From: Escherichia phage PTXU04
Sequence record: NC_048193.1
DNA: 61,600 nt
Direction: 5' to 3' (one strand)
The translations under genes and the position numbers were made by a program. The notes beneath the pieces are model-generated. The model saw nothing but the letters and a program-made list of their open reading frames with translations, was not told the DNA's origin and searched no databases. Every line of letters begins with the position of its first letter. Within the stretch, counting starts at the first letter, position 1. Of the stretch, positions 3,520-30,191 are shown piece after piece.

Positions 3520-3560
3520 TACCATAGGGGCTTCGGCCCCTTATTCACGGAGTACATGAC

Positions 3561-5009: not shown

Positions 5010-5041
5010 TGTTATCATGCACTGATTAACGGAGGTGTACT

Positions 5042-5585: not shown

Positions 5586-5595
5586 GGATTAAGAG

Positions 5596-12625: not shown

Positions 12626-14896
12626 ATGGCTAATTATGATCGCTTTGCATTGCAAGGTGGCCTCGACACGGCCACTCCTTATCTCAGCCGCCAGCCCGGT
12701 ACGCTGACTGCCGCCACAAACTTCTCCCCTGAGACGGATGGCGGCTATGCGCTTGAGGCTGGTTACGAACGTTTCGACGGTCAGCCAGCACCGAGCGAGA
12801 CTGTGGTGTACAGCCTCAACATGACGGACGATGTTACAGGTCTGCTACCGGGTGACGTTATCACAGGATCAACGTCCGGCGCGGTAGCAACTGTCGGCGC
12901 GGTTTTCGGTAAAGAAATCTGGTGTGATGTCACTAATGGTGTCACATTCATGCCGGGTGAGAATATCGGCGCTAACGTTATCGAGTACCTCTCAACGGAA
13001 GCTATTGACCAACGCAGCTACAGTCCGACAGCTACACGCACTACGATTCTGTTGATGTCACCGCTGGCGGCTAACACACTGGAAGTCGGCGATGCGTTAC
13101 TGGGCTTATCCTCAGCCGCTACAGTGGAAGTGAACATCATCAAAGTTACCAACGCTGACATGTGGGTATACGTGTCCACGCTGGCTGGCGCGGTGCAGAT
13201 TGGCGAGACGATGGTGAAGGGTGATGGTACCGAGTACAAGGTTAACGGTGAGTACGAAGTGGAACCTATGCTGGCCTCCCCGGATACTCCCGCAGGTGTC
13301 TTCTTTTACCTGAGCGAATTACGTCGCGCTAAGATTGGTGTGGTGCCGGGTATCAACAGTGTGCGCGGTGTATGGGATCTGGAAGGTGTCGTGTACTCGT
13401 TCCGTGACGCTGACGCCGACAGCACCAAAATGTACCGCAGTACGGTGACAGGCTGGCAGGAAGTCGACCTGGGCTTTACGATGGGATGGGATACGCGCCC
13501 GTCTACAACCACTGACGATGAACTCGGTCCGGGTGATTCAATCCGTGGTGTGACGTCCGGCGCTACGGCAACCGTCGGCTGGGTAGGTTACATCGCTCAG
13601 GATCACTCGTCAGGCTACCTGACGTTCACCAACGTGACCGGAACGTTCCAGGCGGGTGAAGTAATTCGCAACGACACGTACAGCGTCGACATTGGTGAAG
13701 TGACTGCGGCGGCCACGGCTAACGTACTCCCGGCTAACGGTCTGTACCGTTTCACCAACCACAACTTCTTCGGCGGTCTGAACACCTTCGCAATGTACGG
13801 CGTGAACGGTGTCGGTAACGGTTTCGTATACAACGAGACGAACGGCTTCTCATTCATCCCGACGCAGGCAGATACGGATACACCGTTCGACGTGGTTGAA
13901 TACAAAGACCACTTATTCTATGCGTTCCCGAAAGGTAGCCTGCAACACAGCGTGCTGGGTAGTCCGATGGACTGGAGCGGTGGCCTCGGCGCACTGGCGG
14001 TCGGCGTAGGTTCGGAAATCTCTTCACTGATTCCGGCACCAAAATCGCTTATTATTTGTACAGAGAAAGACATCCAAAGTCTTGAGGGGAGCAGCATCGA
14101 TGACTGGCAAAAAGAGGTTATTACTCAGCATACTGGTATCTCTAAATTTACTGGGGTGTACCAGTCTCAATCACTCGTACTCGCCCAGGCAGGTATCATT
14201 AGTATCGACCGGACTGACCAATTTGGTAACTTTAGCGACGGTACTATCAGCGACATCATCCGAGACACCATCGTACCTAACTATTCTCGCTGCACTTGCG
14301 CAATGGCAAGGAAGAGTCGAGGGCAGTACAGACTACATTTCGAGGGAGACGTCAACATTGCCCTTTCCACTAACCAGGGGAATGTGATCGGCTTCTCGAT
14401 GTTTGACTACGGCGGTCTGACGGTGCGTACGGCGGTCAACCCGTACGGTCGTATCTTCTTCATTTCGGACACCGGATACGTCTATCAGGATTCCGTAGGG
14501 GCCAGTAACGATGGTGGTGAACGGTCATCTGTATTCCGCACATCCTTCGCCAACCAGGGTGACCCGGATACTCGCAAGCGGTACCGCCGTATGGACATGA
14601 GTATCCGTGCTCAATCTTACCTTAACGCGCGTGTCGTTTTCTCGTACAATAAAGGCGCATCCACGCCGCAGGCATCGGTCGAATCTGGCCTGTTAGTGTC
14701 CGGCGGCGGACGCTGGGATTTGTCGCTGTGGGGGCAAGTCTACTGGGATGCCACGGAAAACCCGACAATCTCGTCTGACATTGACGGTTTAGGTTTTGAC
14801 ATCAGCACCATGCTGTACATCCGGTCACGAATCCATCCGCAGTTTACCGCAGAGGATTTATCATTCGAATGGTCACCACGTAGAAAGGTACGATAA
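12626..14896 (+). CDS. virion structural protein (tail tube B-like by position)
   Basis: 756-aa beta-rich protein between the 220-aa protein and the fibers. Confidence 0.45.
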   Translation: MANYDRFALQGGLDTATPYLSRQPGTLTAATNFSPETDGGYALEAGYERFDGQPAPSETVVYSLNMTDDVTGLLPGDVITGSTSGAVATVGAVFGKEIWCDVTNGVTFMPGENIGANVIEYLSTEAIDQRSYSPTATRTTILLMSPLAANTLEVGDALLGLSSAATVEVNIIKVTNADMWVYVSTLAGAVQIGETMVKGDGTEYKVNGEYEVEPMLASPDTPAGVFFYLSELRRAKIGVVPGINSVRGVWDLEGVVYSFRDADADSTKMYRSTVTGWQEVDLGFTMGWDTRPSTTTDDELGPGDSIRGVTSGATATVGWVGYIAQDHSSGYLTFTNVTGTFQAGEVIRNDTYSVDIGEVTAAATANVLPANGLYRFTNHNFFGGLNTFAMYGVNGVGNGFVYNETNGFSFIPTQADTDTPFDVVEYKDHLFYAFPKGSLQHSVLGSPMDWSGGLGALAVGVGSEISSLIPAPKSLIICTEKDIQSLEGSSIDDWQKEVITQHTGISKFTGVYQSQSLVLAQAGIISIDRTDQFGNFSDGTISDIIRDTIVPNYSRCTCAMARKSRGQYRLHFEGDVNIALSTNQGNVIGFSMFDYGGLTVRTAVNPYGRIFFISDTGYVYQDSVGASNDGGERSSVFRTSFANQGDPDTRKRYRRMDMSIRAQSYLNARVVFSYNKGASTPQASVESGLLVSGGGRWDLSLWGQVYWDATENPTISSDIDGLGFDISTMLYIRSRIHPQFTAEDLSFEWSPRRKVR

Positions 14897-16521
14897 TGGC
14901 TAACACTTATTTCAACTACATGGACCCGGTAGAACCGGGCGACCGTCTGGAGTCGAACAAATACAACGGTGACTTCTCCGCGATCGCCCGTGCTTTCGAC
15001 ATTCTACCGTCGCCAGATGCGCTGGCCTCCAACACCGGAAACTATGCCCGGTCACAGGGTACATCCACGGCGTACACAGTAACCCTCCCGCGCTTCGATG
15101 GTAGCTTCGGTTACATCACGGGTATGCAGGTGTTGCTCAACATTCACGTCAACAACACCGGGGCGGCCACGCTCAACATTAACGGACTCGGCCCTAAGCC
15201 ACTCGTCAACCTGACTACCGCGCTCGGCCCACTGGTGGCTAATGATCTGCGTGCAGGTACCATCTATTCCATCCGTTATGATGGTACCCGTTTCCAGGTA
15301 GTCAACACTGTTTCCGGTGCCGTAAACGCATCGCAGACCGCAGCTACCCAGGCAACTACTGCCGCCACAAACGCTGGTACGTCCGCCACAAACGCAGCAG
15401 CCAGCGCCAGCGCCGCAGCGACAAGCGCGAGTAACGCAGCAGCCAGTGCCAGTACCGCATCTTCAGGTGTTACCGCCGCTGCAAACTCTGCCAGCGCCGC
15501 ATCAACATCTGCAACCAACGCCGCAAACTCTGCGTCTGCGGCAAACACATCTGCGGGTAACGCCGCCAGCAGCGCCACGGCAGCATCCGGCAGCGCCACG
15601 GCAGCGGCAAACTCTGCCACGGCAGCATCCGGCAGCGCCAGTACCGCTAACACTCGCGCTACGGCAGCGGCAGCAAGTGCTACGGCAGCAGCAAACTCCG
15701 CAACTCAGGCAGCGGCCAGTGCTCAGACTGCACTCAATGCTATCGGCGACGCGTCGTTCAAAGCGGCGGTGATGGGTGTCCTGTTGACCAGTTCGCTGGA
15801 CGTGGGTACCGTCAAGTTCTATGCGCTGAACATTGACCCTAATGTCAAATATCCCGGTACCACCTGGGTACGACTGCCCGTGTCCCAAAGCATCCGCACA
15901 TCCCTGGCCGACGCAAGTGACGTCATGACCACGGTAGGTGCTGACACTGTGACACTGGTAACAGCCAACATCCCGTCACACAGTCACACGGGTACAGCGA
16001 CGATTGCCAGTACGGATTTGGGTAACAAGACGTCAACCAGCTTTGACTACGGTACCAAAACATCCAGCACCAAAGACTACGGTAACCTTACGTCATCCAG
16101 CTTTGACTACGGTAACCTTACGTCATCCAGCTACGATTACGGCAATGCCACATCAAGCGCCGCAGGTAGTCACAGTCATACAGTACCCGCTATTATCGGT
16201 ACCGGTACTACACCATCGCTCAAATCAGCAGCAAACGACTCATCGTCTGCGGGTAACGTCGCCACATCCAGCGTTGGTAACCACACGCATACGTTCGACC
16301 TACCGTCACACAACCACACTGTTGGTATCGGCTCACATACACACACCGTGTCGTTGGGTACACACAGTCACACTGTAGCGGTGGGAAGCCACAGTCACAC
16401 CGTAGCGGTGGGAAGTCACAACCATACAGTGACAGCCAGCATCGGTAACACGGGTACTGGTCAGGCTTTCAGCATCGTGGCAAACTCTACTATCCTTGTC
16501 GGCTGGAGACGTACCGCATGA
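14896..16521 (+). CDS. tail fiber-like protein 1 (Ala/Ser-repeat shaft, His-X-His-X repeat tip)
   Basis: 541 aa; N-terminus MANTYFNYMDPVEPG similar to the next gene; long AANSASAA-type repeats; C-terminal SHSHTV/GSHSHTVAVGSHSHTVAVGSHNHTV repeats. Confidence 0.6.
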   Translation: MANTYFNYMDPVEPGDRLESNKYNGDFSAIARAFDILPSPDALASNTGNYARSQGTSTAYTVTLPRFDGSFGYITGMQVLLNIHVNNTGAATLNINGLGPKPLVNLTTALGPLVANDLRAGTIYSIRYDGTRFQVVNTVSGAVNASQTAATQATTAATNAGTSATNAAASASAAATSASNAAASASTASSGVTAAANSASAASTSATNAANSASAANTSAGNAASSATAASGSATAAANSATAASGSASTANTRATAAAASATAAANSATQAAASAQTALNAIGDASFKAAVMGVLLTSSLDVGTVKFYALNIDPNVKYPGTTWVRLPVSQSIRTSLADASDVMTTVGADTVTLVTANIPSHSHTGTATIASTDLGNKTSTSFDYGTKTSSTKDYGNLTSSSFDYGNLTSSSYDYGNATSSAAGSHSHTVPAIIGTGTTPSLKSAANDSSSAGNVATSSVGNHTHTFDLPSHNHTVGIGSHTHTVSLGTHSHTVAVGSHSHTVAVGSHNHTVTASIGNTGTGQAFSIVANSTILVGWRRTA

Positions 16522-18134
16522 GTAACCAATATTACAACTTTATCAATCCGGCTGAAGCGGGTACGATTGTCGACCCGTTCGACTACAACCGTGAGATGGA
16601 AAAGATCACCGAGGCTTTCTCGGTGGTCCCGCCTGCTTCCCAGTTAACTTCCGGTACCCTGAACTACTCAACGGATACGGGTACCGGGAATGATCACATC
16701 GCCACGCTGGATGACTTTGATACCGACTATGTTGCCGGGAGTAACGTTGCGCTCCGAATCAATGACGCGTCTACCGGACCGTCTACCCTGAGTGTAAACG
16801 GGCTGGCCGCTAAAGACGTCACGCTGTCTGTGTTCGGCGCTGTGGCGGCAGGTGACCTGTTTGCTGAAGGTGTCTATACCTTCGTATTCAACGGTGAGCG
16901 TTTCCAGATTCTGGAGATGGGCGCACGCTATTACACTACCGCCTTCGAACAGCTTTCAATCGCCCAGGCTAAAGCTGCACTCGCGGCGGCCAGTGAAGCT
17001 GCGGCACTGAGTGAGCGTAACGCAGCAGCAGCGTCGGCGGCAAACGCCCTCACGTCAGCAAACGCTATTACCGCGTCCAAAGATGCAGCAGCAGGTAGCG
17101 CTACGTCTGCGGCAAACTCTGCGTCGGCAGCAGCAGGTAGCGCTACGTCTGCGGCAAACTCTGCGTCGGCAGCCAACACCTCTGCGGTCAACTCCGCGTC
17201 AAGCGCAACGGCGGCGGCAAACTCCGCAACGGCGGCGGCAAACTCCGCGACGGCTTCCGACGCCAGCGCAACGGCGGCGGCAAACTCCGCAACAGCAGCA
17301 GCAGGTAGCGCGGCGGACGCAGCAACTTACGCACAGGAAGCTATCGACATCGTTAACGCGCCGAACTTTCTCGACCGCGTGCAGGCGGCTATTCTTGAAC
17401 TGGAACTGTTCCCCGGCTGTACCGAGTTCTTTGACGCTGACATCGATCCTAACGTTAAGTATCCGGGTACCACATGGGTACGCTTACCAGCGTCGACATC
17501 ATTACGTATGTCCAACGCCACGGGCAGTGACGTTAACGGAACGACAGGCGCTGACAGTGTGACACTTTCGACAAACAACCTGGCCTCGCACAACCATTCA
17601 GTGACAATGGGTACCGTGAGCAGCACCGACCTGGGTACCGACACTCTGGCATCTGTTGACCTGGGTACCGACACTCTGGCTAACACTACCATCGCAGCGA
17701 AGACCACATCCAGCTTCGACTATGGTACCAAAACGGCATCAGGTTACGATCCCGGTGCGATTTCCACCAGTGGTGCTGGCGGCCACAGTCACACGTTTAC
17801 GGCGTATACCGCAGACGGATCGGGAGTGAGAATACGCTCAGCAGCGAACGACTCGACGTCTGCGGGTAACGTCACCACATCAAGTGCTGGTAACCACACG
17901 CACACTGTAGCTTTAGGTGCGCACACGCACACTGTAGCTTTAGGTGCGCACACTCACACCTTCCCGGTCGGCAGTCACACGCACACTGTAGCTTTGGGAG
18001 CGCACAGCCACACAGTGGCTTACGGCAGTCACGGACATAGTGCCACATTGTCGTTAAGCAACACTGGTTCCGGTACGTCCTTTGGCGTGGTAGAATCGTC
18101 TCTAATCTTAGTTGCATGGTACAGGAGCGCATAA
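16518..18134 (+). CDS. tail fiber-like protein 2 (paralog of 14896-16521)
   Basis: 538 aa; N-terminus MSNQYYNFINPAEAG; Ala/Ser repeats including a perfect 42-bp tandem DNA repeat; C-terminal LGAHTHTVALGAHTHTVALGAHTHTF repeats. Confidence 0.6.
   Translation: MSNQYYNFINPAEAGTIVDPFDYNREMEKITEAFSVVPPASQLTSGTLNYSTDTGTGNDHIATLDDFDTDYVAGSNVALRINDASTGPSTLSVNGLAAKDVTLSVFGAVAAGDLFAEGVYTFVFNGERFQILEMGARYYTTAFEQLSIAQAKAALAAASEAAALSERNAAAASAANALTSANAITASKDAAAGSATSAANSASAAAGSATSAANSASAANTSAVNSASSATAAANSATAAANSATASDASATAAANSATAAAGSAADAATYAQEAIDIVNAPNFLDRVQAAILELELFPGCTEFFDADIDPNVKYPGTTWVRLPASTSLRMSNATGSDVNGTTGADSVTLSTNNLASHNHSVTMGTVSSTDLGTDTLASVDLGTDTLANTTIAAKTTSSFDYGTKTASGYDPGAISTSGAGGHSHTFTAYTADGSGVRIRSAANDSTSAGNVTTSSAGNHTHTVALGAHTHTVALGAHTHTFPVGSHTHTVALGAHSHTVAYGSHGHSATLSLSNTGSGTSFGVVESSLILVAWYRSA
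17089..17172. repeat. perfect 42-bp tandem duplication inside fiber gene 2
   Basis: cagcaggtagcgctacgtctgcggcaaactctgcgtcggcag occurs twice back to back (17089-17130, 17131-17172). Confidence 0.7.
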
Positions 18135-19267
18135 TGTCAGGATTAACTAACCCGGCACAGTCGGATAGCACCACTACTAACCAGCCGGATCAGGTGCTCG
18201 CTACGAGCACCCCTTCGTCCACGTCCGGTGCGCTGGGTGCGAGCAACATTCAGAACGACGCGTCACAGCAGTCGAATGTGGCCTCGTCAATGGCGCAGGC
18301 GGCACAGGCTCAGCAGCAGCAGCAACAGCCGCAGCAGCAGCAGGCGGTACCCGTTGCGTCACAGCCAGCACCGCAGCAGGTGACCAATGGTGCCGTAGCA
18401 AACAACAATAACGCCAACGCCGCCAACAACTACCAGACTGTGGACCAGGCGTACAGCCAGTTGACCGCACAGAATAGCCCGATGATGCAGCAGGCAGCGG
18501 CTACGGCCCAGCGTCAGGCAGCACGTCGCGGTATGGGTAACTCGTCTATGGCTGTCGGCATGGGTCAGGCGGCCACGGATGCGGCTGCACAAAACATGGC
18601 GTCACAGATGGCTACCCAGTCGCAAGGTCAAGCGCAGTACAATCGCAGCCAGACGGAAGCTGAACGCGCCAAGCAGGTACAAGAAGGTCAGACGGATCGT
18701 CAATTGACAGAAGCCGAACGTGCCGCCCTGGTGCAAGAAGGGCAAGGACAACAGCAAATCACCAACCAGGCGTCACAGTTCGCACAGTCTTTAGAAGAAC
18801 AGATTCGTTCCGGTAAGGTCAGCGAGCAGCAAGCCCAGCAGCAGATCAACAACCAGGCGTCACAGTTCAGCCAAAGCCTGGCCGAGCAAATCCGCTCCGG
18901 TAAAGTGACGGAAGCGCAGGCTGCCGAGCAGATTAAGAATCAGGCGTCGCAGTTTAAAGATTCCCTGAAGCAACAACAGTTTGAGTTCAACGCCAACCTC
19001 GGTCTGGAGAACGCCAAGCTGAAGCAGGACGCCGCACAGTTCGCAACGTCTATTCAGGCTAACGCCCGTGGCAGCTATACGGACTCGGTGAACAACCTGT
19101 TAAACAACAGTTCGGTGAACATCAACAATATTTCTTCCAACCCGGATTTGACCACGGACCAGAAGAACAAGCTGATCTCGCAGGAACTGAGCAACCGTAA
19201 CAATGACCTGAAGTATTTGCAGTCACTTTATGGTAACGTTACATCCTGGTCCGACAAACTGAAATAA
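18116..19267 (+). CDS. Gln-rich repeat protein (possible internal virion protein)
   Basis: 383 aa; QQQQQQPQQQQ run; three tandem peptide repeats NQASQF-QSL-EQIRSGKV. Confidence 0.5.
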   Translation: MVQERIMSGLTNPAQSDSTTTNQPDQVLATSTPSSTSGALGASNIQNDASQQSNVASSMAQAAQAQQQQQQPQQQQAVPVASQPAPQQVTNGAVANNNNANAANNYQTVDQAYSQLTAQNSPMMQQAAATAQRQAARRGMGNSSMAVGMGQAATDAAAQNMASQMATQSQGQAQYNRSQTEAERAKQVQEGQTDRQLTEAERAALVQEGQGQQQITNQASQFAQSLEEQIRSGKVSEQQAQQQINNQASQFSQSLAEQIRSGKVTEAQAAEQIKNQASQFKDSLKQQQFEFNANLGLENAKLKQDAAQFATSIQANARGSYTDSVNNLLNNSSVNINNISSNPDLTTDQKNKLISQELSNRNNDLKYLQSLYGNVTSWSDKLK

Positions 19268-19276
19268 GGGGCGGCT

Positions 19277-19579
19277 ATGAGTTTCTTCGGTAGTTTTCTC
19301 GATACGGCGTCCAGCGCTTTCAACTGGCTGAGCAACAACAAGGCGGCACTGGATTTAATCTCCGGTGCTGCAAAAGGTTACGGTGCTTACATGCAGTACA
19401 AGCAGGGTAACCAGCAAATGAAATTGATGCAGAAGCAGCAGGAGAACGAGCAGCGTCGCTGGAATGATACGCACGGTGTCATCGACAGTTACGACAACTC
19501 TATCCCTCCGGGGCAGCAGGCTAACTCTGCGTTACTGTCAGGCAGCATGGCCGACGCAATGAAGCAAGGAGTTAAATAA
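19277..19579 (+). CDS. hypothetical protein
   Basis: 100-aa ORF; translationally coupled to flanking genes. Confidence 0.45.
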   Translation: MSFFGSFLDTASSAFNWLSNNKAALDLISGAAKGYGAYMQYKQGNQQMKLMQKQQENEQRRWNDTHGVIDSYDNSIPPGQQANSALLSGSMADAMKQGVK

Positions 19580-20535
19580 TGGCACAGGCACAAGGCGGTA
19601 CCGCAGGTAGCTCATCAACCCGTGGCAACGGCAGCTTATCGGCTGGCGCATCTTCGCGTGGCGGCGGCTTAGGCGGTGGCCTCGGTGGTAGCAACGGCGG
19701 CAGCAATAACGCGGGTAACAGCAAAGGTAACGCTGCGTCGAGCAATGCGGCCAGTGGGGCTTCAGCAGGCGCAGCAGCGGCAGGCGCAACGGCGGCAGCG
19801 GCAGGTGACTCTAAGCAGACTGGCGGCAGCCTCATGGGCGGTCTGAAGTCGGCGGTGGATAGCGCACGTTCTTCACGCACCGCAGCAGCCGCACCGTCAA
19901 CCAGCGCACCACAAGGTACTTTGTCGGCGTCCGACGTTGCAGGCATTGACAGCGAAAGCCATTCAGCCGCTGCGAACCTGGCAGCACGCGATCAAGGTTT
20001 CCGTGACACAGCTAACGCTAAGACCACCGCAGCAACAATGGGCGGCCTCGGTATGGCTGGTAGTCTCGTAGGCAATCTTGCCAGTAAACTGACAGCAGCG
20101 GCAGCACCGACTGAAGGTAGCGACCTGAGCGCTAACCACAACGTTGGTAAGGCGTGGGCTAACAGCGTCGGTCCCAGCAAAACTGTGAGCATGGCTGCAA
20201 GCCTGGCTGGCGGTATTCTCGGCGGTCCTATCGGTTCCGCACTGGCTGGCTTCGCGCTGGGTATTGCTAACGATCAGGCGGCCAAAGCAGCTAACCCGCA
20301 AGCGATGGCCGCTACACCACAGCAGATTGCCAACCGCGCTACGTTCGGTCAGCAGGCGGGTACCAGCAGTTCCGATCAGTACGATGCGACTGGTGCTAGT
20401 TCCGGTACCAACAATAGCAGCAACATGATGTCATCCATGAGCGCCGCCGCTCAACCGGGCGCTGGCTTCCAGGCGGCTGACGATTTCAGCGAGCAGCGTA
20501 AAGTGGACAACCTCAACTTAGGGAGCATCATCTAA
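19579..20535 (+). CDS. Gly/Ala/Ser-rich low-complexity protein
   Basis: 318 aa; GGGLGGGLGGSNGGSNNAGN and poly-Ala tracts. Confidence 0.45.
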   Translation: MAQAQGGTAGSSSTRGNGSLSAGASSRGGGLGGGLGGSNGGSNNAGNSKGNAASSNAASGASAGAAAAGATAAAAGDSKQTGGSLMGGLKSAVDSARSSRTAAAAPSTSAPQGTLSASDVAGIDSESHSAAANLAARDQGFRDTANAKTTAATMGGLGMAGSLVGNLASKLTAAAAPTEGSDLSANHNVGKAWANSVGPSKTVSMAASLAGGILGGPIGSALAGFALGIANDQAAKAANPQAMAATPQQIANRATFGQQAGTSSSDQYDATGASSGTNNSSNMMSSMSAAAQPGAGFQAADDFSEQRKVDNLNLGSII

Positions 20536-21092
20536 TGGGCGTTAGTCAGGAATATATCGATCAGCAGAAATACTACGCTGACGCAGTACAGGCATACAAA
20601 GCCAACGGTATGAGCCACAACGCAGCCTGGAAAAAGGCGGAAGCTGACTGGGCCGCAGGTGAACGTAACGTTGCCCGGAACGCGGATACCACAGGTTACA
20701 AGCCTCAGAACGCTGATACCAAAGCGTCACAGGGTGTTGTCCCGGCGTCACAGCGTAACGAAGATGGTACCCCCATCAACACGGCAAGCTCCGGTAGTAA
20801 CAGTAGTGGCAACTCTACTGAAGCCGTGCGCTACCGTGGTTCAACATCACAGACTCGCGTGGGTACCGATACCCGTGTGCGTGGTGGTACCGAAGCATCC
20901 AAAGCTGGTCAGGGTATGGGTAACACCGATCAGGGTATGGCTGCGGCAATGAAGAGTGCCACAGGCAAACAATTCGCTGACTCCAGTGACGTTCAACCCG
21001 TGGCCTCCAAGCAGAACGCATGGCAGGGAAACCGGACTCCGGTTAATCTGGCTTCCGTACAGCAACGTGTGTTAAAGTCTATCGGTCAATAA
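20535..21092 (+). CDS. hypothetical protein
   Basis: 185 aa; coupled start (ATG overlaps upstream stop). Confidence 0.45.
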   Translation: MGVSQEYIDQQKYYADAVQAYKANGMSHNAAWKKAEADWAAGERNVARNADTTGYKPQNADTKASQGVVPASQRNEDGTPINTASSGSNSSGNSTEAVRYRGSTSQTRVGTDTRVRGGTEASKAGQGMGNTDQGMAAAMKSATGKQFADSSDVQPVASKQNAWQGNRTPVNLASVQQRVLKSIGQ

Positions 21093-21107
21093 ATTAAGGG
21101 GCGAATT

Positions 21108-21794
21108 ATGTCAATGATGGATGCAATGAGTATGGGCGGCCAGCCTCCGCAGCAGGAAACGCAGGCACCACAGACTCAACCAATGGACCAGAAGACGTTG
21201 CGTATGGGCGGCGATGACCCTGCGGAAATGGAGAAGCTCTATAACAAAGTTATGGCGCTGATCTCTTCCGAGATTTGGGAAGGTCAGGGTGCCGACCAGG
21301 TGTCTGCACAGTTGATGGAAGATGACTCTGAGCCAGCCGAGGTTGTCGGCAAGTTCACTGGCTTCTATCTTATGATGGCTACTGCCGCTGCCAGAACTAA
21401 CGGTGGTTCATTCCCGCCTGTGGTTATCGTGGGTGCTGCCGCAGAGACGTCGAGTCAGCTTACTGATCTGGCGCTTATGCTGAAACTGATCTCCCCGGAA
21501 GAAGCGGACGATACCGCAGACGCTGGCGCACTGATTGGTCTGGAAGTTCTCATCGCCCAGGGCGGTAACCAGATGGCACCTGAAGAGAAACAGGAATACG
21601 CCGACATCGTTAAGGCTGTCATCAACGCATCGCCGAACGCTCAGGAAATCGCTGAGGAAGGTGCCGAGGATGCCATCGAAGAAGTTGAAGAAATGGGCGC
21701 ACCGGACGACAGCGCTGAAGAGATGGAAGCACAGACCGATGTTGATATGGCAGAGAAACCGCAGGGCATGGCCGCTGCAATGGGAGGCGCGTAA
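21108..21794 (+). CDS. acidic hypothetical protein
   Basis: 228 aa; Asp/Glu-rich C-terminus; GGGGCGAA RBS-like upstream. Confidence 0.45.
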   Translation: MSMMDAMSMGGQPPQQETQAPQTQPMDQKTLRMGGDDPAEMEKLYNKVMALISSEIWEGQGADQVSAQLMEDDSEPAEVVGKFTGFYLMMATAAARTNGGSFPPVVIVGAAAETSSQLTDLALMLKLISPEEADDTADAGALIGLEVLIAQGGNQMAPEEKQEYADIVKAVINASPNAQEIAEEGAEDAIEEVEEMGAPDDSAEEMEAQTDVDMAEKPQGMAAAMGGA

Positions 21795-22648
21795 TGAGTA
21801 TCGGTGAAGCACTGGCGGCAATGTTTGCAGGTGCAGCAGGTGAAGCGGCAGGTAACCGCGCGACTGAAATTCGTGACGAAGAAAAAGCTCGTCTGGCAGA
21901 AGCACGCGAACTGAAAATGATGGCGCTCCAGCAGAAGTACCAGACGTCCGAGCGTGAGGCCAGTCAGGCTTACGGTACGTCCGAGCGTAAGGATACTCAG
22001 GCTTACAACTCTGCCGAGAAGCAGAAAGACCGTGACTTCCAGTCTTCCGAGCGTCAGGCATCGCAGGCATTCCAGGCTGGCGAGAATGCTAAGTCACGCG
22101 CGGCTCAGGCTGGTAGCGATGGTGTTGGTCCGAACGGTAAGCGTCTGCAAGGTACACCGCAGATGGAGAAAGACGAAGACGGCAACATGACGGGTCGTAT
22201 GATCTTTACCTATCGTGACGGTACCGTACAGGTTAAAGCCATTGACGATCTGCCGGGTGGCGACGCTGACACCAAATCCAGCAAAGCACAGCGTGAGTCC
22301 GACGCCGCAGCATATGCTAAGAAGCGTGTCAGTGAGCAAGCTGGCCTCCTGTCATCCGATAAGGAAGACTTCAAAGATTATGGTGGTAGTCGCACCAAAG
22401 CTGAAGAAGCCTACAAGCAGGAGTATCTCAACAAGAACAAAGGTGGCGGCAGCAATGAAGAGTTACCGGGCAGCGGTCCTAAGTTCCAGGAGGGCGCAGA
22501 TCTGGCGACTAAGGAAGCTGAGAAAGGATACACCGCTAACCAGCAAGCCATGATCGCTCGCGTTAAGGAGAAGTACCCTGACGCATCCGATGACCAAATC
22601 GCGGCGGCCATTCGTGCTAATCCGCAATATGCACCAATGTTCAAATAA
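21794..22648 (+). CDS. repeat-containing hypothetical protein
   Basis: 284 aa; four SER-x-x-SQAY-type peptide repeats. Confidence 0.45.
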   Translation: MSIGEALAAMFAGAAGEAAGNRATEIRDEEKARLAEARELKMMALQQKYQTSEREASQAYGTSERKDTQAYNSAEKQKDRDFQSSERQASQAFQAGENAKSRAAQAGSDGVGPNGKRLQGTPQMEKDEDGNMTGRMIFTYRDGTVQVKAIDDLPGGDADTKSSKAQRESDAAAYAKKRVSEQAGLLSSDKEDFKDYGGSRTKAEEAYKQEYLNKNKGGGSNEELPGSGPKFQEGADLATKEAEKGYTANQQAMIARVKEKYPDASDDQIAAAIRANPQYAPMFK

Positions 22649-22689
22649 ATGTGCTATGCTTCCCCTATCAACAAGGGGGAGCATTTCTA

Positions 22690-25600
22690 ATGGCTAGTAA
22701 CATCGACCTTTCTGGACTGGACTTATCCCAGCCAAATCAACAACCTGCAACGAAGAAGTCTGAAAAGACTGCACCTGCTATTGACCTGTCGACGGTTAAC
22801 TTTGACCTGAGCGACGTAGACTTTTCCGGTATTGGAAATGAGAAGGCTGTCACAGAACCAGCAAAAGAAGATAGCTGGGGCGACGTAATTTACAAATCTC
22901 TCGCCGCGATGCCTGAGCGTATGCAACGTTCATGGCAGGGTATCAAACAAGGCGTGGCCGTTAAAGGTCAAGACCTGACTGACGGGGTGCTGGCTGAACG
23001 CCTGCGTAACGATCCGTCATATGCTGCCGAACTGGGGATTGACCCGGCTACCTTTACCGCTGCCGAAGGCGACACGTATGCGACCAAACTGCAAAAGAAT
23101 AAAGCTCTCTACGCCGCTATTGATAAAGCGAAGGCCGCAGAACTGAATAAGGATGCCGACTTTGTTGCCGCGCGTGATGAAGGTCTTCGCCTGTCAAACG
23201 AGATTGCCAAAACTGCACCGAAGACTGGTGACGAGTGGTCAGCTAAAAACCTGGTATCCACAATCCTCACTGGCGCGCAGGACATGTCTCCGGCAATCCT
23301 GACGTCCATCCTGTTGAAGCGTCCGGTCGCTGGCCTCGCTGAGATGACTGGTCAGGCGTACGGTTCCTACTATCAGGACTCAATCGACAAAGGTCTGTCT
23401 CCGGCAGAAGCCGATAACCGCGCTACCATGTTCGCCGCACTGGAACCAATCACTGAAGCGGTACCGCTGGGCCTCATCATGAAGAAGGGTGCGACTAGCC
23501 TGACTGACCTCGGTAAGTCTGCAATGGCTGAAGGTATCCAGGAGTCCGCTACCCAGGCTATCCAGAACGGTTACGACATTGGTGTGCTTGACGAAGATAT
23601 GACGGTAGGCCAGTTCCTGAATGACGTGGCGTTCTCCGGTGTAACTGGTGCTGGCGTAGGTGGCGTGCTGCATGGCGCGGTGCAAGCTCCCGGCATGGTC
23701 AAAGACTGGAAGGATAACCGCTCTGTTAACAACGCTATCGGTGACGCTGCGGCTGAGTCCGGTCAGGCGGTAGAAGGCGTGGACCCGAACGAGTACGACG
23801 CTGTGCGTGCTGAGATGGGCGGCGGTGACGTGCTGGACCAGATGGTTGAACAGGCATCTCCTGCAATCACTGAAGCTCGCAAGTCTGCCTACATGGAAGC
23901 GCGCGCCCAGGGTATGTCTCCGGCTGAAGCGATGGCCGCATCCCGTGAAGTCGGTGAAGTCGACGCTATGGATCAGATGGTCAGCGAACTGTTCGACTCC
24001 CCGGACTCCATCTACTATGCGAACAAGGCAAGCGCCACTAACGCACCGCAGTCTGTAGCACAGATGGTACAGCAGCAGGTAGCGCAGGGTGACATTGGTC
24101 CGCTTCCGGGCGAGACTAAAGGTCTGCCGTCTCCGGGGCAAACTTCCACCATCGCTATGCCCGGTCCAGTTGCGCAGGTTAAAGAGGCCACTGGCTACAA
24201 TCCACGCGGTGCGGCTGAAGAGTCTCCGGTACTGGCAGCAGTCCAGCAGAAACTGGAAGCGCCAGCACTGCCGCCGCAGGTTACTGAAGCTGTGGTACCG
24301 CCAGCACTGCCGCCTAAAGCTGAAGTGACTCCGCCTGCGTTACCGCAGATTGACGTAGCCGCTGCACTGGAACCTACCGTTCCTGCCGCTGAGCCAGCCG
24401 CTGCCGAGGTTAAACCGAAGCCAGCACTGTTTGCCCGTACCAAAAAGAAAGCCGCGCCAGAAGTCGATACAGAAGCACTGGCCGCCGAAGAAGCACGTCA
24501 GGCAGAACTGAAGGCGAAAGGTGACGAGGCTGTAGCCAAATACGTTGAGCGTGAATCCGTGCGTCCGGCGTTACCGGGTAAGAAGCCGCCAGCTATTCAG
24601 GTCACCAACAAGATCCTGAAGGAAGCCAACGAGCGTGGCGTTGACGTCGGCAATAAAGTGAACTGGAACGGCAAGGAGTATTCCGTCGATAAATTCCAGG
24701 GCCGTGCTGTACGTCTGGTTGATGAGAACGGCAACGGTCACATTGTTGATGCCCGTGAAATCAACGTGCCGTCTGTGGTACCGGAAGGTATGAAGCGTGT
24801 ATCCCAGGAAACCAAAGACGCCCGTGAGCGTTACGACCTGGCCCCTGTAGAGTTCGAAGATGAGCGCAACCTGGGTGAGATGGTTACCGATGCACAGCAG
24901 GCGACCGACGATGTACTGGCGCAGTCTGCCGAAGTTCAGCGTGACCTGGGTGAGATGATCGCTGAGAAGGAGAAGGACAACGCCGCAATTGAAGGTGAGT
25001 CCACTCGCGTTACCGACGTTGAAGGTCGTGTTGGTTTTGAACCAGTGGAAGGTACCGACCTGGACGGGAAGTATGCGAAAGACTCCCACGGTGAAGTCCG
25101 CAAGATTACTGGCGTGCAAGGTCGTCGCTTCGTGCTGGACAATGGCGACATCATGATTCGTCGCATTGGTGACACCAACGTGATGGATGCTCCACCTAAA
25201 GGCGCACGTAAAGCGATGTCGATGGAGGAACGTATTGTAGCTAACACGCTGCAAGGTATGCTGCATTCACTGAACGATACCAAGCGTCCGCTAAACAAAC
25301 TGCGCGAAAACATGTCTCACGCTAGTAATCAGGTTGATGAACAGTACCGCCATCTGTACGCGCCACTGAAGGGTAAGACTCGCGCGGCCATGCGCAAGGA
25401 ACTGGAAGACCGTATGTCCAGTATCGCTGAGCAGTCACCTAAAGGTCTGAGCAAAGAAAGTCAGGCGACGGCTGACCGCCTGCGTGAGAAGTCTTCCGCA
25501 CGCGCTGAGTCTTTCGAGAAGTCACTGGAAGATTTCACGCGTGGTATGAAACCGCTGGTACGTCGCAACTACATTCGCGCCCTGGAGAAGATGCAACCGG

Positions 25601-28600
25601 ACGGCATTACCCTGAAGGAAACCATCGACCGTGCGTATGCCCGTGGCGATAAAGTTGACTCCCGTGACATGTCGGCACCAGCCAGACATTACGTGGCCTA
25701 CAAAGAAGCTCGCGTACCGAAGAAGACTGACAAGCCGGACGTTACCCCGAACGTCGACTATCACACGCTGGTAGGTAAAACTTTCGAGGAAGACGGCGAG
25801 ACGTTCACCGTCAAGTCTATTCACGACACGTACCTGGCTACCGAAGACTCACAAGGTCGTCGTGAGATTTTCGGCAAGGATTACGCTAAGCGTAAGATCG
25901 ACAAGCAGTCCGGCGCGGCCAGCGTTAAGCCTGCGACCGAGAAGAAAGGGATGTCACCTGAAGATGTGGCTGTGGTTGCTACCGACTTCCTGAAGAAGTT
26001 CAAAGGTGCGCAGGCAATCAACATGTCCGTCATGCAGCGTCAGGAAGACATGGGTATCGACCTGCCGGAAGGTAGCGTACTGCTCGGCTTCTACGATGCT
26101 GGCAACGTGAGCGCCAAGCTGATCTCTGAAAACCTGACCAGCAAGGAAGAAGTGGAAGCGCTGTTGCGTCACGAAATCATCGTGCACTACGGCCTGCGCG
26201 CTCGCCTGTCTAAACCGGAATACGACGCTGAGATGGATAAAATCCTGGCCGCTGATAAGTCCCCGGCGCTGGCGAAGTATTTCAAAACTGTACGCGAGCA
26301 ATACAGCGACCTGTATGACATGAACTCACCTGACGCACAACGCATGATGGCTGAAGAAGTCCTGGCGCTGGCGGCAGAAAACCCGGCTATCCTGGAGAAG
26401 TCCAACGTCATTACCCGCGTGATTGAAGCTCTGCGTCAGTTGATGATTAAAGCCAAACTGATTGACGGTCGCGCCAGCATGGAGTCAGTACGCCAGCTTA
26501 TTCAGGCCAATGCTCAGTACCTGCGTGACAACACTGTCAACCGTGACGACGTGCGTAAGTCTCTGCCGCCGATGCAATACAGCGCGCCGAAGAACTTTGC
26601 CGCCAGCCTGAAAAAGAAAAATGACATCGAGTCTGCGGAAGTGGACGAAGACATCAAGCAGGGTATGCGTGACACCATGTACCGCGATGACCGCTCTCTG
26701 TTCCAGCGCATCAAAGACATCATGAAAGACAACGGTCTGACGATGGAAGGCTTGTATCAGAAAGGCGTGGATGACCTGTACACCATCGCCAAATATGAGA
26801 AGGCTGGCAACAATGGTGAACTGCGTCAGGGTAAAGAGTCAGCGTACAAGATGGCAATGCTGGCGAAGAACGTGAACAGCACCGTGGCCGTCGCAATGAA
26901 CCACGGCGCTCCGGTATACAAAGACGGCGGCATCAGCCTGAACAAGAACACCAAAGGCTTCACCGAAATCTTCAAGCCAGTGCTGGAGATGAAAGGTAAC
27001 ATGCTGCCAGTGTGGGAATACTGGGCGGGTGCTGTGCGTGCTAAGCGCTTGATGGAAGAAGGCCGCGAAAACCTGTATACCGAGAAGCAGATTAAAGACA
27101 TCATCGACTATGTTAACCGTCGCCCGGAAATGCGTAAGGTGTTCAACCAGGCACACAAAGACTGGCGTGAGTTCAACAAAGCTATCCTCGACTTCGGTGA
27201 GCAAACTGGCATCGTGGATCCTGAGCAGCGTAAACTGTTCGAGTCCGATGACTACGTTCCGTTCTACCGTGTGGATGAGGAAGTGGACCGTGTGACAGCA
27301 CCGTCTGGAAAACGTGGCCTCGCTGATCAGTCTTCCGGTATCCGCCGTCTGAAAGGTGGCGCTGGTAAGATGGACATTCTGGAGAACATGGCGCGTAACG
27401 TTAACCACATGATCACCTCCGGCTACAAGAACGCGGCCATGCAGAAGGTGCGTGACATCACCATCAACGCAGCGCTGGAAGAAGTACCGCATAACTTCAA
27501 GCCAGTCGGCATCAGCAACGAGCAGATGAAACGTGCGCTGACCAACCTGGGTCTGAAGGTTGAAGGTATGACCGCTGAGCAGATGGCGCAATACTCCAAC
27601 CTGTTCACCGCAGTAGCACCGCAGGGCGCTAACATTATCTCCGTGCGTGAAGGTGGTAAGCCGAAGTATTACGAAGTGACGGATCCTCAGTTGTTGGAAG
27701 CTATCGCAGGTGTTGGCCCGGAAGCCGTTGATACCCTCATCAACATTCTCGGCTGGCCTAAGCGTGTGTTCACCGCAGCCGTGACGTCAACGCCTAACTT
27801 CGTTATGACCAACTTCGTACGTGACGTGATGGGTAACTATGTGCAGATGGCTAAAGCAACTGGCCGCAACGAGACGTCAACGATTGTCAAAGATGTACTG
27901 ACATTCCGTCCGTTCTTTAAAGCGTTCCAGGGTGCGATGCGTTCTATCCGTAACGATAACATGACTGTCGATTACCATGTGGCTGGCGGCATGATGGGTG
28001 GTTATGACAACTCACGTCCAGAGTCGGTTGCCAAAAACCTGCGCAAGCTGGAGAAAGGCGGCACCATCATTAACTCACCGAAGAAGCTGTGGGAAATGTA
28101 CAGCAAGTTGCTGACCGCATCTGAACAGGCCACGCGCATGGGTGTGTACGAAGATGTCCTGAAGCACACTGGGGATCCGGTGGAAGCGGCATACCAGTCT
28201 AACGATGTGCTGAACTTCAGCCGCCGTGGTAGCAGTCGTTTGACCAAAGCGGTCATGGCGATCACCCCGTTCCTGAATGCCCGTGTACAGGGTCTGGACC
28301 GTATGGTGCGCGGTGGTAAAGAGAACCCGAAAGCCTTCATGCTAAAAGGTGCTCTGCTTGTTGGTGCAACGATGGCCCTTATGGCAATCAACGCAGACGA
28401 CGAACGTTACTGGGCGCTGCCGGAACACGAACGTGATTCCTTCTGGATCATCTTCGCTGGCGACACTCGCTACCGTATCCCGAAACCGTTCGAACTGGGA
28501 GCACTGTTCGGCACTATCCCTGAGCGTGCATTCGAAGCGCTGTACCGTGATGACCGTATGTTCGGTGCACGCATGGGCTTCATGCTGGGTAACACCTTCG

Positions 28601-29283
28601 CGATGGACTGGCCTCAATTCTTCAAGCCAATCTACGAAGACCAGACCAACATGAACAGCTTTACTCAGCGTCCGGTTGTACCGCAGTCACTGCAACGTCT
28701 GGAAGCTAACCAGCAGTACAGCACCACGACGCCGGAATGGATTAAGGATGTGAGTAAGGCGTTACCTGAAGCTGCCCCGGAATGGATGCGTAGTCCGCTG
28801 CGTCTCCAGCATATGATTGAAGGTTACACCGGAACAGTCGGTCAGTACATCATCGGCGTAACGGACGTGGCCTACCGCAAAGGAACGGGTACCGAAAAAG
28901 TTGCCCCGGCTAAAAAGGATTTTGATTACCCGGTGGTAAAAACTTTCGTACGTGGCGGTGTGTCCGGCGACAAATACACCGACCGTCTGTACCAGATGAG
29001 CGAGAAGGCTGGTCAAACGTACGGTACCCTGAAGGCGTACAAAGACCAGAAGAACATGCAGGCGTATCGGGAGTTCAAGACCGAGAAGGCCAGCGTGTTG
29101 TCTGCCCGTAAGTCAATTGAGAAAGGCGTTGCCCGGATGCAGAAGTACAACCGCCAGACGAAAGAGATTTACGCGAACGACAGTATGTCACCTGAAGCGA
29201 AGCGTGCGGAACTGGACGCCTTACAGGTTAAGAAGAACGAACTGGCGAAAGAATTGAGTGACAAATATTGGATGTTGTTTTAA
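22690..29283 (+). CDS. giant virion-associated protein (~2200 aa; putative internal/ejection protein)
   Basis: ORF-track frame 22651-29283; start moved to ATG 22690 with AAGGGGGAG RBS. No P-loop or polymerase motif recognised; last gene of the structural block; followed by hairpin plus T8 (29324-29354). Confidence 0.55.
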   Translation: MASNIDLSGLDLSQPNQQPATKKSEKTAPAIDLSTVNFDLSDVDFSGIGNEKAVTEPAKEDSWGDVIYKSLAAMPERMQRSWQGIKQGVAVKGQDLTDGVLAERLRNDPSYAAELGIDPATFTAAEGDTYATKLQKNKALYAAIDKAKAAELNKDADFVAARDEGLRLSNEIAKTAPKTGDEWSAKNLVSTILTGAQDMSPAILTSILLKRPVAGLAEMTGQAYGSYYQDSIDKGLSPAEADNRATMFAALEPITEAVPLGLIMKKGATSLTDLGKSAMAEGIQESATQAIQNGYDIGVLDEDMTVGQFLNDVAFSGVTGAGVGGVLHGAVQAPGMVKDWKDNRSVNNAIGDAAAESGQAVEGVDPNEYDAVRAEMGGGDVLDQMVEQASPAITEARKSAYMEARAQGMSPAEAMAASREVGEVDAMDQMVSELFDSPDSIYYANKASATNAPQSVAQMVQQQVAQGDIGPLPGETKGLPSPGQTSTIAMPGPVAQVKEATGYNPRGAAEESPVLAAVQQKLEAPALPPQVTEAVVPPALPPKAEVTPPALPQIDVAAALEPTVPAAEPAAAEVKPKPALFARTKKKAAPEVDTEALAAEEARQAELKAKGDEAVAKYVERESVRPALPGKKPPAIQVTNKILKEANERGVDVGNKVNWNGKEYSVDKFQGRAVRLVDENGNGHIVDAREINVPSVVPEGMKRVSQETKDARERYDLAPVEFEDERNLGEMVTDAQQATDDVLAQSAEVQRDLGEMIAEKEKDNAAIEGESTRVTDVEGRVGFEPVEGTDLDGKYAKDSHGEVRKITGVQGRRFVLDNGDIMIRRIGDTNVMDAPPKGARKAMSMEERIVANTLQGMLHSLNDTKRPLNKLRENMSHASNQVDEQYRHLYAPLKGKTRAAMRKELEDRMSSIAEQSPKGLSKESQATADRLREKSSARAESFEKSLEDFTRGMKPLVRRNYIRALEKMQPDGITLKETIDRAYARGDKVDSRDMSAPARHYVAYKEARVPKKTDKPDVTPNVDYHTLVGKTFEEDGETFTVKSIHDTYLATEDSQGRREIFGKDYAKRKIDKQSGAASVKPATEKKGMSPEDVAVVATDFLKKFKGAQAINMSVMQRQEDMGIDLPEGSVLLGFYDAGNVSAKLISENLTSKEEVEALLRHEIIVHYGLRARLSKPEYDAEMDKILAADKSPALAKYFKTVREQYSDLYDMNSPDAQRMMAEEVLALAAENPAILEKSNVITRVIEALRQLMIKAKLIDGRASMESVRQLIQANAQYLRDNTVNRDDVRKSLPPMQYSAPKNFAASLKKKNDIESAEVDEDIKQGMRDTMYRDDRSLFQRIKDIMKDNGLTMEGLYQKGVDDLYTIAKYEKAGNNGELRQGKESAYKMAMLAKNVNSTVAVAMNHGAPVYKDGGISLNKNTKGFTEIFKPVLEMKGNMLPVWEYWAGAVRAKRLMEEGRENLYTEKQIKDIIDYVNRRPEMRKVFNQAHKDWREFNKAILDFGEQTGIVDPEQRKLFESDDYVPFYRVDEEVDRVTAPSGKRGLADQSSGIRRLKGGAGKMDILENMARNVNHMITSGYKNAAMQKVRDITINAALEEVPHNFKPVGISNEQMKRALTNLGLKVEGMTAEQMAQYSNLFTAVAPQGANIISVREGGKPKYYEVTDPQLLEAIAGVGPEAVDTLINILGWPKRVFTAAVTSTPNFVMTNFVRDVMGNYVQMAKATGRNETSTIVKDVLTFRPFFKAFQGAMRSIRNDNMTVDYHVAGGMMGGYDNSRPESVAKNLRKLEKGGTIINSPKKLWEMYSKLLTASEQATRMGVYEDVLKHTGDPVEAAYQSNDVLNFSRRGSSRLTKAVMAITPFLNARVQGLDRMVRGGKENPKAFMLKGALLVGATMALMAINADDERYWALPEHERDSFWIIFAGDTRYRIPKPFELGALFGTIPERAFEALYRDDRMFGARMGFMLGNTFAMDWPQFFKPIYEDQTNMNSFTQRPVVPQSLQRLEANQQYSTTTPEWIKDVSKALPEAAPEWMRSPLRLQHMIEGYTGTVGQYIIGVTDVAYRKGTGTEKVAPAKKDFDYPVVKTFVRGGVSGDKYTDRLYQMSEKAGQTYGTLKAYKDQKNMQAYREFKTEKASVLSARKSIEKGVARMQKYNRQTKEIYANDSMSPEAKRAELDALQVKKNELAKELSDKYWMLF

Positions 29284-30005: not shown

Positions 30006-30191
30006 GATACTCGCTGCAATCTTCAGTTCGACAGGTACGCGATTGAGATCGCGGTGAATGCCTACATCCGGTGGTGCGGAAATACGTAGACCGACGTTAC
30101 CATTCTCAGAGTTCTCTACCGTCACGACAATATCGTTACCGATGTAGACGCTCTGACCTTCACGTCTGGTAATACGGAGTCCCTTAGCCAT
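29991..30191 (-). CDS. CsrA-like RNA-binding protein (carbon storage regulator homolog)
   Basis: ORF-track frame 29991-30257 trimmed to ATG 30191 (GGAG RBS 6 nt upstream). Product MAKGLRITRREGQSVYIGNDIVVTVENSENGNVGLRISAPPDVGIHRDLNRV aligns with E. coli CsrA ([21 protein letters not shown] ... VRIGVNAPKEVSVHREE), including the beta1 TRR and beta5 HR(D/E) RNA-binding residues. Confidence 0.6.
   Translation of the reverse strand: MAKGLRITRREGQSVYIGNDIVVTVENSENGNVGLRISAPPDVGIHRDLNRVPVELKIAASIKKGR

Follow-up and report, generated by a model that had tools for sequence, protein, structure and literature searches.

Between its fibre genes and a giant open reading frame (ORF), the Escherichia coli podovirus PTXU04 (genus Xuquatrovirus) carries six low-complexity genes, gp19 to gp24, and the question that this locus raises is what such a run of proteins does for the phage. 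We analysed it within a window of 61,600 nucleotides, the complete genome of the phage (sequence record NC_048193.1); positions refer to this window, and gp numbers without a phage name are those of PTXU04. The initial annotation, made without database searches, had suggested that the six may be ejected internal proteins or assembly factors. Homology in a sister phage, co-variation between neighbouring genes, genetics and precedent now support the first of these for the module as a whole, and we put at about 0.7 the probability that the six proteins and the giant gp25 make up a module of ejection proteins (internal virion or 'E-proteins') in PTXU04. For gp20 to gp23 an ejected role is not separable from one in assembly, and the roles given to them below are inferred.

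The evidence that carries this reading begins with Bas95 (HelliStehle), a distant relative of PTXU04. Pairwise hidden Markov model searches found orthologues of all six genes in Bas95 and no LPD38 giant. Residues 1-105 of gp24 align throughout with its Bas95 orthologue (80% identical over gp24 residues 26-105), and further along the Bas95 protein residues 203-326 match residues 338-465 of P22 gp20 with 42.7% identity over 131 residues (E 2e-24). The next Bas95 gene encodes a 734-residue protein that gives no significant alignment with gp25 and is a homologue of P22 gp16 (phrog_770, 'DNA transfer protein', E 2.4e-40; tblastn E 2e-17; phmmer 7e-28). A comparison with the internal-protein modules of related podoviruses, which the initial annotation had proposed as a check, thus finds that the Bas95 cluster ends in homologues of P22 gp20 and gp16. 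In PTXU04 the slot held by the P22 gp16 homologue in Bas95, and also in the Vibrio phage D277, is occupied by gp25, whose LPD38 domain (PF18857, E 1.6e-38) lies in a C-terminal region with homologues in 257 phage records.

The two architectures diverge inside gp24, and the point at which nucleotide similarity to Bas95 breaks off coincides with the end of the gp24 repeat array (Table 1). In nine of nine loci the position of the gp24 slot is constant and the type of its C-terminus tracks the downstream protein: a 'KYPDASDEQI'-type C-terminus precedes an LPD38 giant in five (PTXU04, its close relative Pondi, the loci L017 and L019, and Vibrio phage D274), and another C-terminus precedes a protein of 706-741 residues in the other four (Bas95, L016, L018 and D277), among which homology to P22 gp20 and gp16 was checked for Bas95 and D277. 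The downstream protein of D277 is a P22 gp16 homologue; its gp24-slot protein is annotated as 'released from the phage upon host infection' and has a C-terminus without a significant match to P22 gp20. The Vibrio phages D274 (15325-24813) and D277 (2987-6084) are otherwise collinear, one having a 3,162-residue LPD38 giant where the other has the P22 gp16 homologue, and the preceding C-terminus differs to match; the swap therefore occurred independently in the Vibrio lineage. At the level of sequence, these comparisons show that the C-terminal half of gp24 and the next gene are exchanged as one unit.

By eye, the D274 giant also contains helicase-like and NPPF methyltransferase-like motifs. An N-terminus like P22 gp16 within it was considered and rejected, since the tblastn hits that had suggested it belong to siblings such as D277 that carry a separate P22 gp16 homologue in place of the giant.

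Genetic data point in the same direction. In a published CRISPRi-ART screen gp19, gp20, gp23, gp24 and gp25 were scored 'Fit' (essential), gp22 'Semi-fit' and gp21 'Not fit', the values being 2.14 for gp19 (p 3.7e-5), 1.55 for gp20, 1.15 for gp23 and 2.12 for gp24. The same study flagged gp16 to gp25 as a run of highly fit genes with function unidentified and as a route to understanding LPD polyvalent proteins. Orthologues in Vibrio phage D274, in the same gene order and ending in its giant, are limited to gp19, gp20, gp23 and, weakly, gp24, with no counterpart of gp22, so that the four essential genes of the cluster are the four deeply conserved ones. Homologues of the cluster proteins reach 37-40% identity and extend to Vibrio phages. 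Among unrelated metagenomic podovirus contigs we found the order gp19-like protein, Gly/Ala-rich hydrophobic (membrane-like) protein, acidic protein, gp24-like protein and giant, and in another contig a gp19-like gene stands directly before a giant of at least 3,904 residues.

These genetic data also bear on the possibility that the six are no parts of a channel but are packaged as effectors of host takeover or anti-defence, acting together with gp25, for instance gp23 as an acidic DNA mimic. LPD38 proteins have been proposed as conflict effectors, gp23 carries a net charge of -34, and in the CRISPRi-ART study expressed gp20, gp22, gp23, gp24 and gp25 were toxic to E. coli or interfered with infection. 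However, the genes are essential in E. coli BL21, a laboratory host in which a pure anti-defence role would probably be dispensable; Bas95 retains all six without an LPD38 protein, and the link of gp24 to P22 gp20 indicates channel building. We consider effectors of this kind very improbable.

That the six ORFs are genuine genes follows from their ratios of nonsynonymous to synonymous substitution rates (dN/dS) against Pondi, which of all records in the phage collection comes closest (92.8% identity across this region); the ratios lie between 0.03 and 0.16 across all six and indicate purifying selection (gp19 0.05, gp20 0.04, gp21 0.16, gp22 0.03). The ORFs are consecutive on the plus strand, flanked on one side by two paralogous fibre genes (14896-16521 and 16518-18134) and on the other by the giant ORF, and their coordinates and protein sequences match PTXU04_00019 to PTXU04_00024 of NC_048193 in the supplementary gene table of the CRISPRi-ART study, which also includes PTXU04_00025. 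The placement of six genes between the fibres and the giant gene in the initial annotation thus stands for all the ORFs, with one correction: the first start, given there as 18116, is more likely 18134, because this codon has a GGAG 8 nt upstream, overlaps the stop of gp18 (TAATG) and is the start used in both RefSeq and Pondi. Ribosome-binding sites are present for the cluster genes, and start and stop codons overlap within it (for example the gp23 stop on the gp24 start, with the gp23 start overlapping nothing upstream). Since a strong terminator is absent between 11335 and about 29990, the cluster lies in one late transcription unit with the adaptor, nozzle and fibre genes and gp25.

The composition described for the proteins is confirmed. 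When 75 non-overlapping ORFs of the genome were ranked by their fraction of order-promoting residues, the five lowest were gp21, gp24, gp22, gp19 and gp23, with gp20 ninth, which bears out the view of a disorder-rich cluster. The plural 'acidic proteins' of the initial annotation goes too far, as strong acidity is confined to gp23 (gp22 +5, gp19 and gp24 -4 each). Across 18134-29283, neither the six proteins nor the 2,197-residue gp25 contain a single cysteine. The long spurious antisense ORFs that had been attributed to this composition are present, as stop-free stretches of up to 226 codons in both PTXU04 and Pondi, including a 220-residue minus-strand ORF at 21408-22070; selection and homology back the plus-strand genes instead. 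The very low complexity and the long ORFs of the other strand might be taken to mean that the cluster itself is an artefact of biased base composition, a reading refuted by the dN/dS values, the Vibrio-phage homologues, the ribosome-binding sites and the CRISPRi phenotypes, and to which we give virtually no chance.

Table 1. Positions in the PTXU04 window of the six cluster genes, the giant gene and elements within or between them.
Feature	Coordinates	Strand	Remarks
gp19 (PTXU04_00019, 377 aa)	18134..19267	+	essential; orthologues in Bas95 and Vibrio D274
(CAG)11 microsatellite encoding the gp19 poly-Q tract	18311..18343	+	Tandem Repeats Finder (TRF)
Three 29-aa gp19 repeats (GQQQITNQASQFAQSLEEQIRSGKVSEQQ and variants), aa 205-291	18746..19006	+	pattern search
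gp20 (100 aa)	19277..19579	+	essential; orthologues in Bas95 and D274
gp21 (318 aa, 54% Ala+Gly+Ser)	19579..20535	+	'Not fit'; orthologue in Bas95 only
Glycine-zipper-like hydrophobic segment of gp21, aa 205-232 (VSMAASLAGGILGGPIGSALAGFALGIA)	20191..20274	+	Kyte-Doolittle
gp22 (185 aa)	20535..21092	+	Semi-fit; mildly basic (+5), S/T/G/Q-rich, GMAAAMK motif
gp23 (228 aa, net charge -34)	21108..21794	+	essential; AlphaFold2 core
gp24 (284 aa)	21794..22648	+	essential; AlphaFold2
Hendecad repeat array of gp24, aa 45-99	21926..22090	+	periodicity, pattern search, TRF
Mosaic junction inside gp24	22054..22111	+	nucleotide similarity to Bas95 ends at 22054 (codon 87), protein similarity near aa 105
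Weak stem-loop, 7 pairs, containing the gp25 ribosome-binding site GGGGGAG	22660..22681	+	
gp25, giant polyvalent protein (2,197 aa from the annotated start)	22690..29283	+	essential; LPD38 at 28399-28932

The structure predicted for gp24 by AlphaFold2 comprises a disordered Gly/Ala-rich N-terminus, an 84-residue helix (residues 23-106, 21860-22111), a small beta domain (residues 123-149), further helices and a C-terminal helical domain (residues 248-283) that carries the motif KYPDASDDQI. A Foldseek comparison of this model with the PDB gave nothing below E 0.6, the family profile found nothing among PDB sequences, and scans of IMG/VR with gp24 and gp16 returned no relatives. The four SERxxSQAY repeats that had been noted in this cluster lie in the long helix, where they can be read as four 11-mers (residues 52-93) or as five hendecads in register (residues 45-99). 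Pattern searches and TRF confirmed the internal repeats of gp19 and gp24, which self-BLAST did not display; in gp24, TRF reports a 33-bp unit present 1.9 times at 21944-22006. The hydrophobic periodicity of the gp24 repeats is 3.64 residues (11/3), a value reached in 0 of 300 shuffles. This hendecad type of periodicity is also found in the tube of phiX174 H, where Gln, Asn and Arg line the lumen; these residues make up 25% of the repeat region of gp24 and 33% of that of gp19, compared with 30% in the H tube.

A tblastn search with gp24 recovered the 'DNA pilot proteins' of three Microviridae, whose N-terminal repeats match with E 3e-7 (55% identity over 49 residues). The profile score of this pair is 35 bits (z 11.5), with the similarity confined to the 11-mer array. 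The gp24 family, with 58 database hits, extends in an exhaustive profile search to 230 relatives, many of which share a layout of Gly-rich N-terminus, charged helix, 11-mer array and small beta domain. In other phages an 11-mer of identical type is fused to a gp19-like core and C-terminus, which means that the repeats of gp19 and gp24 are of a single type. The PHROG labels met most often among the 111 remote hits were 'pilot protein for DNA ejection', for four families, and 'released from the phage upon host infection', for one; the source of the second label was looked for in the T7 record and not found there. Tail-fibre domains also occur in several of these hits, which makes the 11-mer a helical module common among virion proteins and not a mark of pilot proteins. 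Candidate links from gp24 to Sap72 of Shiga toxin (Stx) phages, JC1 gp68, Darius 00023 and BA3_0005 were not significant when profiles were compared with shuffled decoys.

Such helices could also belong to the outside of the particle, with gp19, gp24 or both acting as a coiled-coil needle, a plug or a fibre stalk that closes the nozzle. The gp19 gene is the first after the fibre genes, P22-type needles typically have long coiled-coil helices, tails of the SU10 and phi24B types have a needle, the 11-mer occurs in proteins with tail-fibre PHROG domains, and the Bas95 orthologue of gp24 was automatically annotated as 'tail fiber protein'. That label, however, falls on the region homologous to P22 gp20, an internal ejection protein. 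Elsewhere gp19-like genes adjoin the giant or follow the nozzle, with no tie to fibres; the periodicity is hendecad-like and not that of the heptads of trimeric needles; and the paralogous gp17 and gp18 could already supply the central and lateral fibres. On this evidence we give an external position little credence, and we keep to the view that both proteins belong to the ejection module.

The Gln-rich protein with three repeats in the initial annotation is gp19, and the repeats are units of 29 residues that begin at residues 205, 234 and 263, with 23 of 29 positions identical between the first two. In the protein (19% Q, 15% A, 11% S and 10% N) the N-terminus is rich in S, T and Q, and two conserved parts, a core (SPMMQQAAATAQRQAARRGMGNSSMAVG) and the C-terminal domain, enclose a Q-rich helical repeat region that is variable. 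Its repeats have a hydrophobic periodicity of 3.63 residues (29/8; p 0.003 against shuffles). The poly-Q tract is shorter in Pondi (5 gap columns) and may thus vary by slippage. A search with the family, which numbers 20 database hits, found nothing in PDB sequences with its profile, and a likeness by eye of the core (ARRGMGNSSMAVG) to P22 gp7, Stx Sap69 and JC1 gp64 was rejected (z -2.7 to 1.9, profiles against shuffled decoys). One metagenomic protein, P0057 (331 residues), joins a gp19-like N-terminus and 11-mer repeats to a terminal Hint (intein-like) domain, an unexpected fusion for a virion protein.

A conserved amphipathic N-terminus (MSFFGSFLDTASSAFNWL...ISGAAKGYGAY) opens gp20 and is followed by a Q/K/E-rich helix and the C-terminal motif SMADAMK. 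The Gly/Ala/Ser-rich protein reported earlier proved to be gp21. Its hydrophobic segment is the only one in the cluster that comes near to a transmembrane helix (Kyte-Doolittle 1.58 over 19 residues, zero charges); the hydrophobic pattern is conserved in Bas95 and by eye resembles the GGPVGAVAG segment of Sap71 from Stx phages. A GxxxG pattern is likewise seen by eye only; gp21 had no Pfam match even at E 5, Gly-zipper profiles included, and the Stx-phage analogue Sap71 has sub-threshold Gly-zipper Pfam matches (E 9.4e-6). A link of gp21 to JC1 gp67 or to Sap71 was not significant against shuffled decoys. A Met-rich motif recurs at the ends of several of the cluster proteins, namely gp20 (SMADAMK, 19549-19569), gp22 (GMAAAMK, 20928-20948) and both ends of gp23 (21108-21128 and 21768-21791), and may be a shared docking or targeting peptide.

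The gp23 protein begins with MSMMDAM and ends with GMAAAMGG, termini that are strictly conserved across 29 homologues (the family has 49 database hits), and has between them a P/Q-rich linker, a seven-helix globular core (residues 38-196, 21219-21695) and an acidic tail. The AlphaFold2 model has a predicted local distance difference test (pLDDT) score of 74.9, with the core above 90, and a predicted template modelling score of 0.68; structural and sequence searches, including the family profile against the PDB, gave no informative match. Such a profile, in which a small and very acidic helical protein is folded but has disordered ends and invariant terminal peptides, is typical of chaperones and adaptors, and gp23 is the strongest candidate for the alternative that some of the six, if not all, serve assembly and stay out of the virion. 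They would then be chaperones or scaffold-like proteins that bring gp25 and other internal proteins into the procapsid, or that assemble the fibres, and would be left behind afterwards. Models for such factors are the chaperones of type III secretion and P22 gp14, a product labelled 'virion stability factor' that is encoded inside the P22 ejection gene cluster. In addition, the gp23 stop overlaps the gp24 start, so that the Fit score of gp23 may partly reflect translational coupling to gp24. Set against this are the module that gp24 shares with a family ejected in P22, the presence in the JC1 virion of the small proteins encoded beside its giant, and the ejection by SU10 of five consecutive gene products; moreover, no known chaperone fold is indicated by the sequences. 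We regard an assembly role left outside the virion as unlikely, and an ejected module as the better account of the cluster.

Known ejection systems offer several precedents for this module. A preprint on in situ cryo-electron microscopy (cryo-EM) of P22 describes gp7* as forming an outer-membrane pore with Gly-rich C-terminal helices, and gp20 as a dodecamer, with long helices that span the periplasm as a 12-helix barrel and a C-terminal plinth that abuts the cytoplasmic membrane; in its AlphaFold3 model the last gp20 segment wraps the plinth next to the N-terminal region of gp16. Like P22 gp7, gp20 and gp16, which have orthologues in Sf6, the PTXU04 genes form a block of consecutive late genes after the tail genes. 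The Gly-rich N-terminus, the long barrel-suited helices and a C-terminal domain that pairs with the next protein give gp24 the layout of P22 gp20, and the Gly-rich hydrophobic segment of gp21 recalls the membrane-embedded C-terminus of P22 gp7. Unlike P22, with three or four such genes, PTXU04 has six small ones; its gp24 lacks the C-terminal domain of P22 gp20, the slot of P22 gp16 is filled by an unrelated 2,200-residue LPD38 protein, and gp19 to gp23 have no detectable similarity to P22 gp7, gp14, gp20 or gp16.

Other precedents share the giant protein or the tube. In N4 (which ejects its giant polymerase gp50 with two small ejection proteins, gp51 and gp52), in phi24B and in the Bcep22-like JC1, as in PTXU04, a very large encapsidated protein is encoded beside small low-complexity or membrane-active proteins. 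The phi24B giant, gp47, is an LPD38 protein that is abundant in virions and invisible in the cryo-EM map, and the LPD38 domain is common to gp25, phi24B gp47 and the giants of JC1 and Ralstonia phages; in JC1, gp64, gp67 and gp68, encoded just upstream of the 4,515-residue gp69, were found with it in virions by mass spectrometry. However, N4 gp51 and gp52, JC1 gp64, gp67 and gp68 and Stx Sap69 to Sap72 have no significant similarity to the small PTXU04 proteins and are positional or compositional analogues only. In Kuravirus SU10 the five consecutive gene products gp20 to gp24 are present in virions and lost on genome release, and its adaptor family (PF24175) is present in close relatives of PTXU04; yet there is no PHROG-level similarity, and SU10 gp20 is a transglycosylase, a domain not seen in PTXU04 gp19 to gp24. 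The function that we propose for the cluster is that of the T7 internal core proteins gp14, gp15 and gp16, which supply an outer-membrane pore, a periplasmic tunnel and an inner-membrane part, and T7 too ejects small low-complexity proteins, gp6.7 and gp7.3; but the T7 proteins have no sequence similarity to the cluster and form a visible stacked core. With phiX174 H and the other Microviridae pilot proteins gp24 has in common the Gly-rich N-terminus, the Q/N/R-rich helices and the 11-residue periodicity, but the similarity is in the repeats only and gp24 was modelled as a monomer; PTXU04 is a tailed podovirus with a 61.6-kb double-stranded DNA genome, so that gp24 is not a member of the pilot family in a taxonomic sense.

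Several observations weigh against an ejection module. PHROGs and Pfam scans assigned no family to any of the six, and for gp19 to gp23 neither these collections nor the PDB gave a match to a known family of ejection proteins. The small upstream proteins have homology only within the PTXU04 and Vibrio D274 group and in some metagenomic contigs, with none significant to Stx, Bcep22/Ralstonia or BA3 phages. The C-terminal domain homologous to P22 gp20 (MGASGINT...SSPE) is missing from gp24 of PTXU04, the family profile scoring 2.4 bits on P22 gp20, and the gp19 and gp21 family profiles fall below shuffled controls on P22 gp7. Though Gly/Ala-rich, the N-terminus of gp24 is weakly hydrophobic (Kyte-Doolittle 1.07, two charges), below the transmembrane threshold. 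The most membrane-like protein, gp21, scored 'Not fit' and appears dispensable. Members of the gp19 family differ in how many repeats they have, some having none and others many, a variation that one would not expect in a conduit of fixed length. Since the 11-mer also occurs in proteins that bear tail-fibre domains, it is a generic helical stalk and no proof of pilot function. Finally, the virion proteins identified by Korf et al., by peptide fingerprinting of excised gel bands, were gp7, gp10, gp11 and gp12 only, a method uninformative on minor proteins.

If the cluster is nonetheless an ejection module, its proteins would be made late, from the operon that also includes the genes for tail and fibres, and packaged in the head; at infection they would leave through the tail and reassemble as a trans-envelope channel that would serve both the phage DNA and gp25. 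We envisage that gp24 would oligomerise through its 84-residue helix into a periplasmic barrel of many helices, comparable to the phiX174 H tube or to the 12-helix barrel that P22 gp20 forms, and that its C-terminal domain would dock the N-terminus of gp25, much as the P22 gp20 plinth is predicted by AlphaFold3 to contact P22 gp16. With Q/N/R-rich helical repeats of the same kind, gp19 might extend or line the conduit. The putative membrane-active parts would be gp20, through its amphipathic N-terminus, and gp21, through its glycine-zipper-like segment; gp23 may be a packaged partner or a chaperone for gp24 and gp25, and gp22 an accessory component. We speculate further, and hold this version of the scheme to be rather doubtful, that an 11-mer barrel of gp24-like and gp19-like proteins, lined by Q, N and R and sharing repeat ancestry with Microviridae pilots, passes the genome and an unfolded polyvalent protein of 2,200 residues, with the exchangeable gp24 C-terminus as a cargo adaptor that chooses between P22 gp16-type proteins and LPD38 giants in a plug-and-play injection.

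Some features of the surrounding genes and of other phages were observed alongside. The stem-loop between gp24 and gp25 could limit gp25 translation. The fibre proteins gp17 and gp18 (14896-18134) are paralogous; they share an N-terminal domain and have repeats rich in Ala, Ser and Thr as well as His-x-His repeats like those of the distal tip of the T4 long tail fibre, and two much shorter versions (219 and 215 residues) occupy this site in Bas95. Upstream of them the presumed nozzle gp16 (12626-14896, 756 residues) has a match (E 2e-19) to a PHROG with the label 'amidase', which is also the annotation of its Vibrio counterpart; orthologues of the adjacent gp15 carry the SU10 adaptor domain. 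Just downstream of the module, on the minus strand at about 30170-30260, lies a CsrA homologue that is kept in all relatives (loci L016 to L019), and one peptide of a CsrA homologue was detected in virions of JC1, an unrelated podovirus. In the Stx phage VT2-Sakai, two genes upstream of the LPD giant, an 83-residue 'bacteriocin' gene (7870-8121) encodes a glycine-zipper C-terminus. 'A homolog of a bacteriocin' was detected in virions in the phi24B study and dismissed as a contaminant; if the VT2-Sakai protein is a homologue of that virion protein, it may be a genuine internal or ejection protein.

An ejection role for this cluster would give a block of functionally unidentified fit genes a concrete and testable identity, as a conserved N-terminal channel part joined to a cargo-linked C-terminal half, and PTXU04 with Bas95, like Vibrio D274 with D277, provides a natural near-isogenic pair for experiments. 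The microvirus pilot-protein repeat is shown here to be widespread in tailed-phage virion proteins. If correct, our reading would broaden what is known of podovirus ejection proteins, which are not easily identified from their sequences, and would explain the coupling of giant polyvalent proteins to the DNA-delivery channel.

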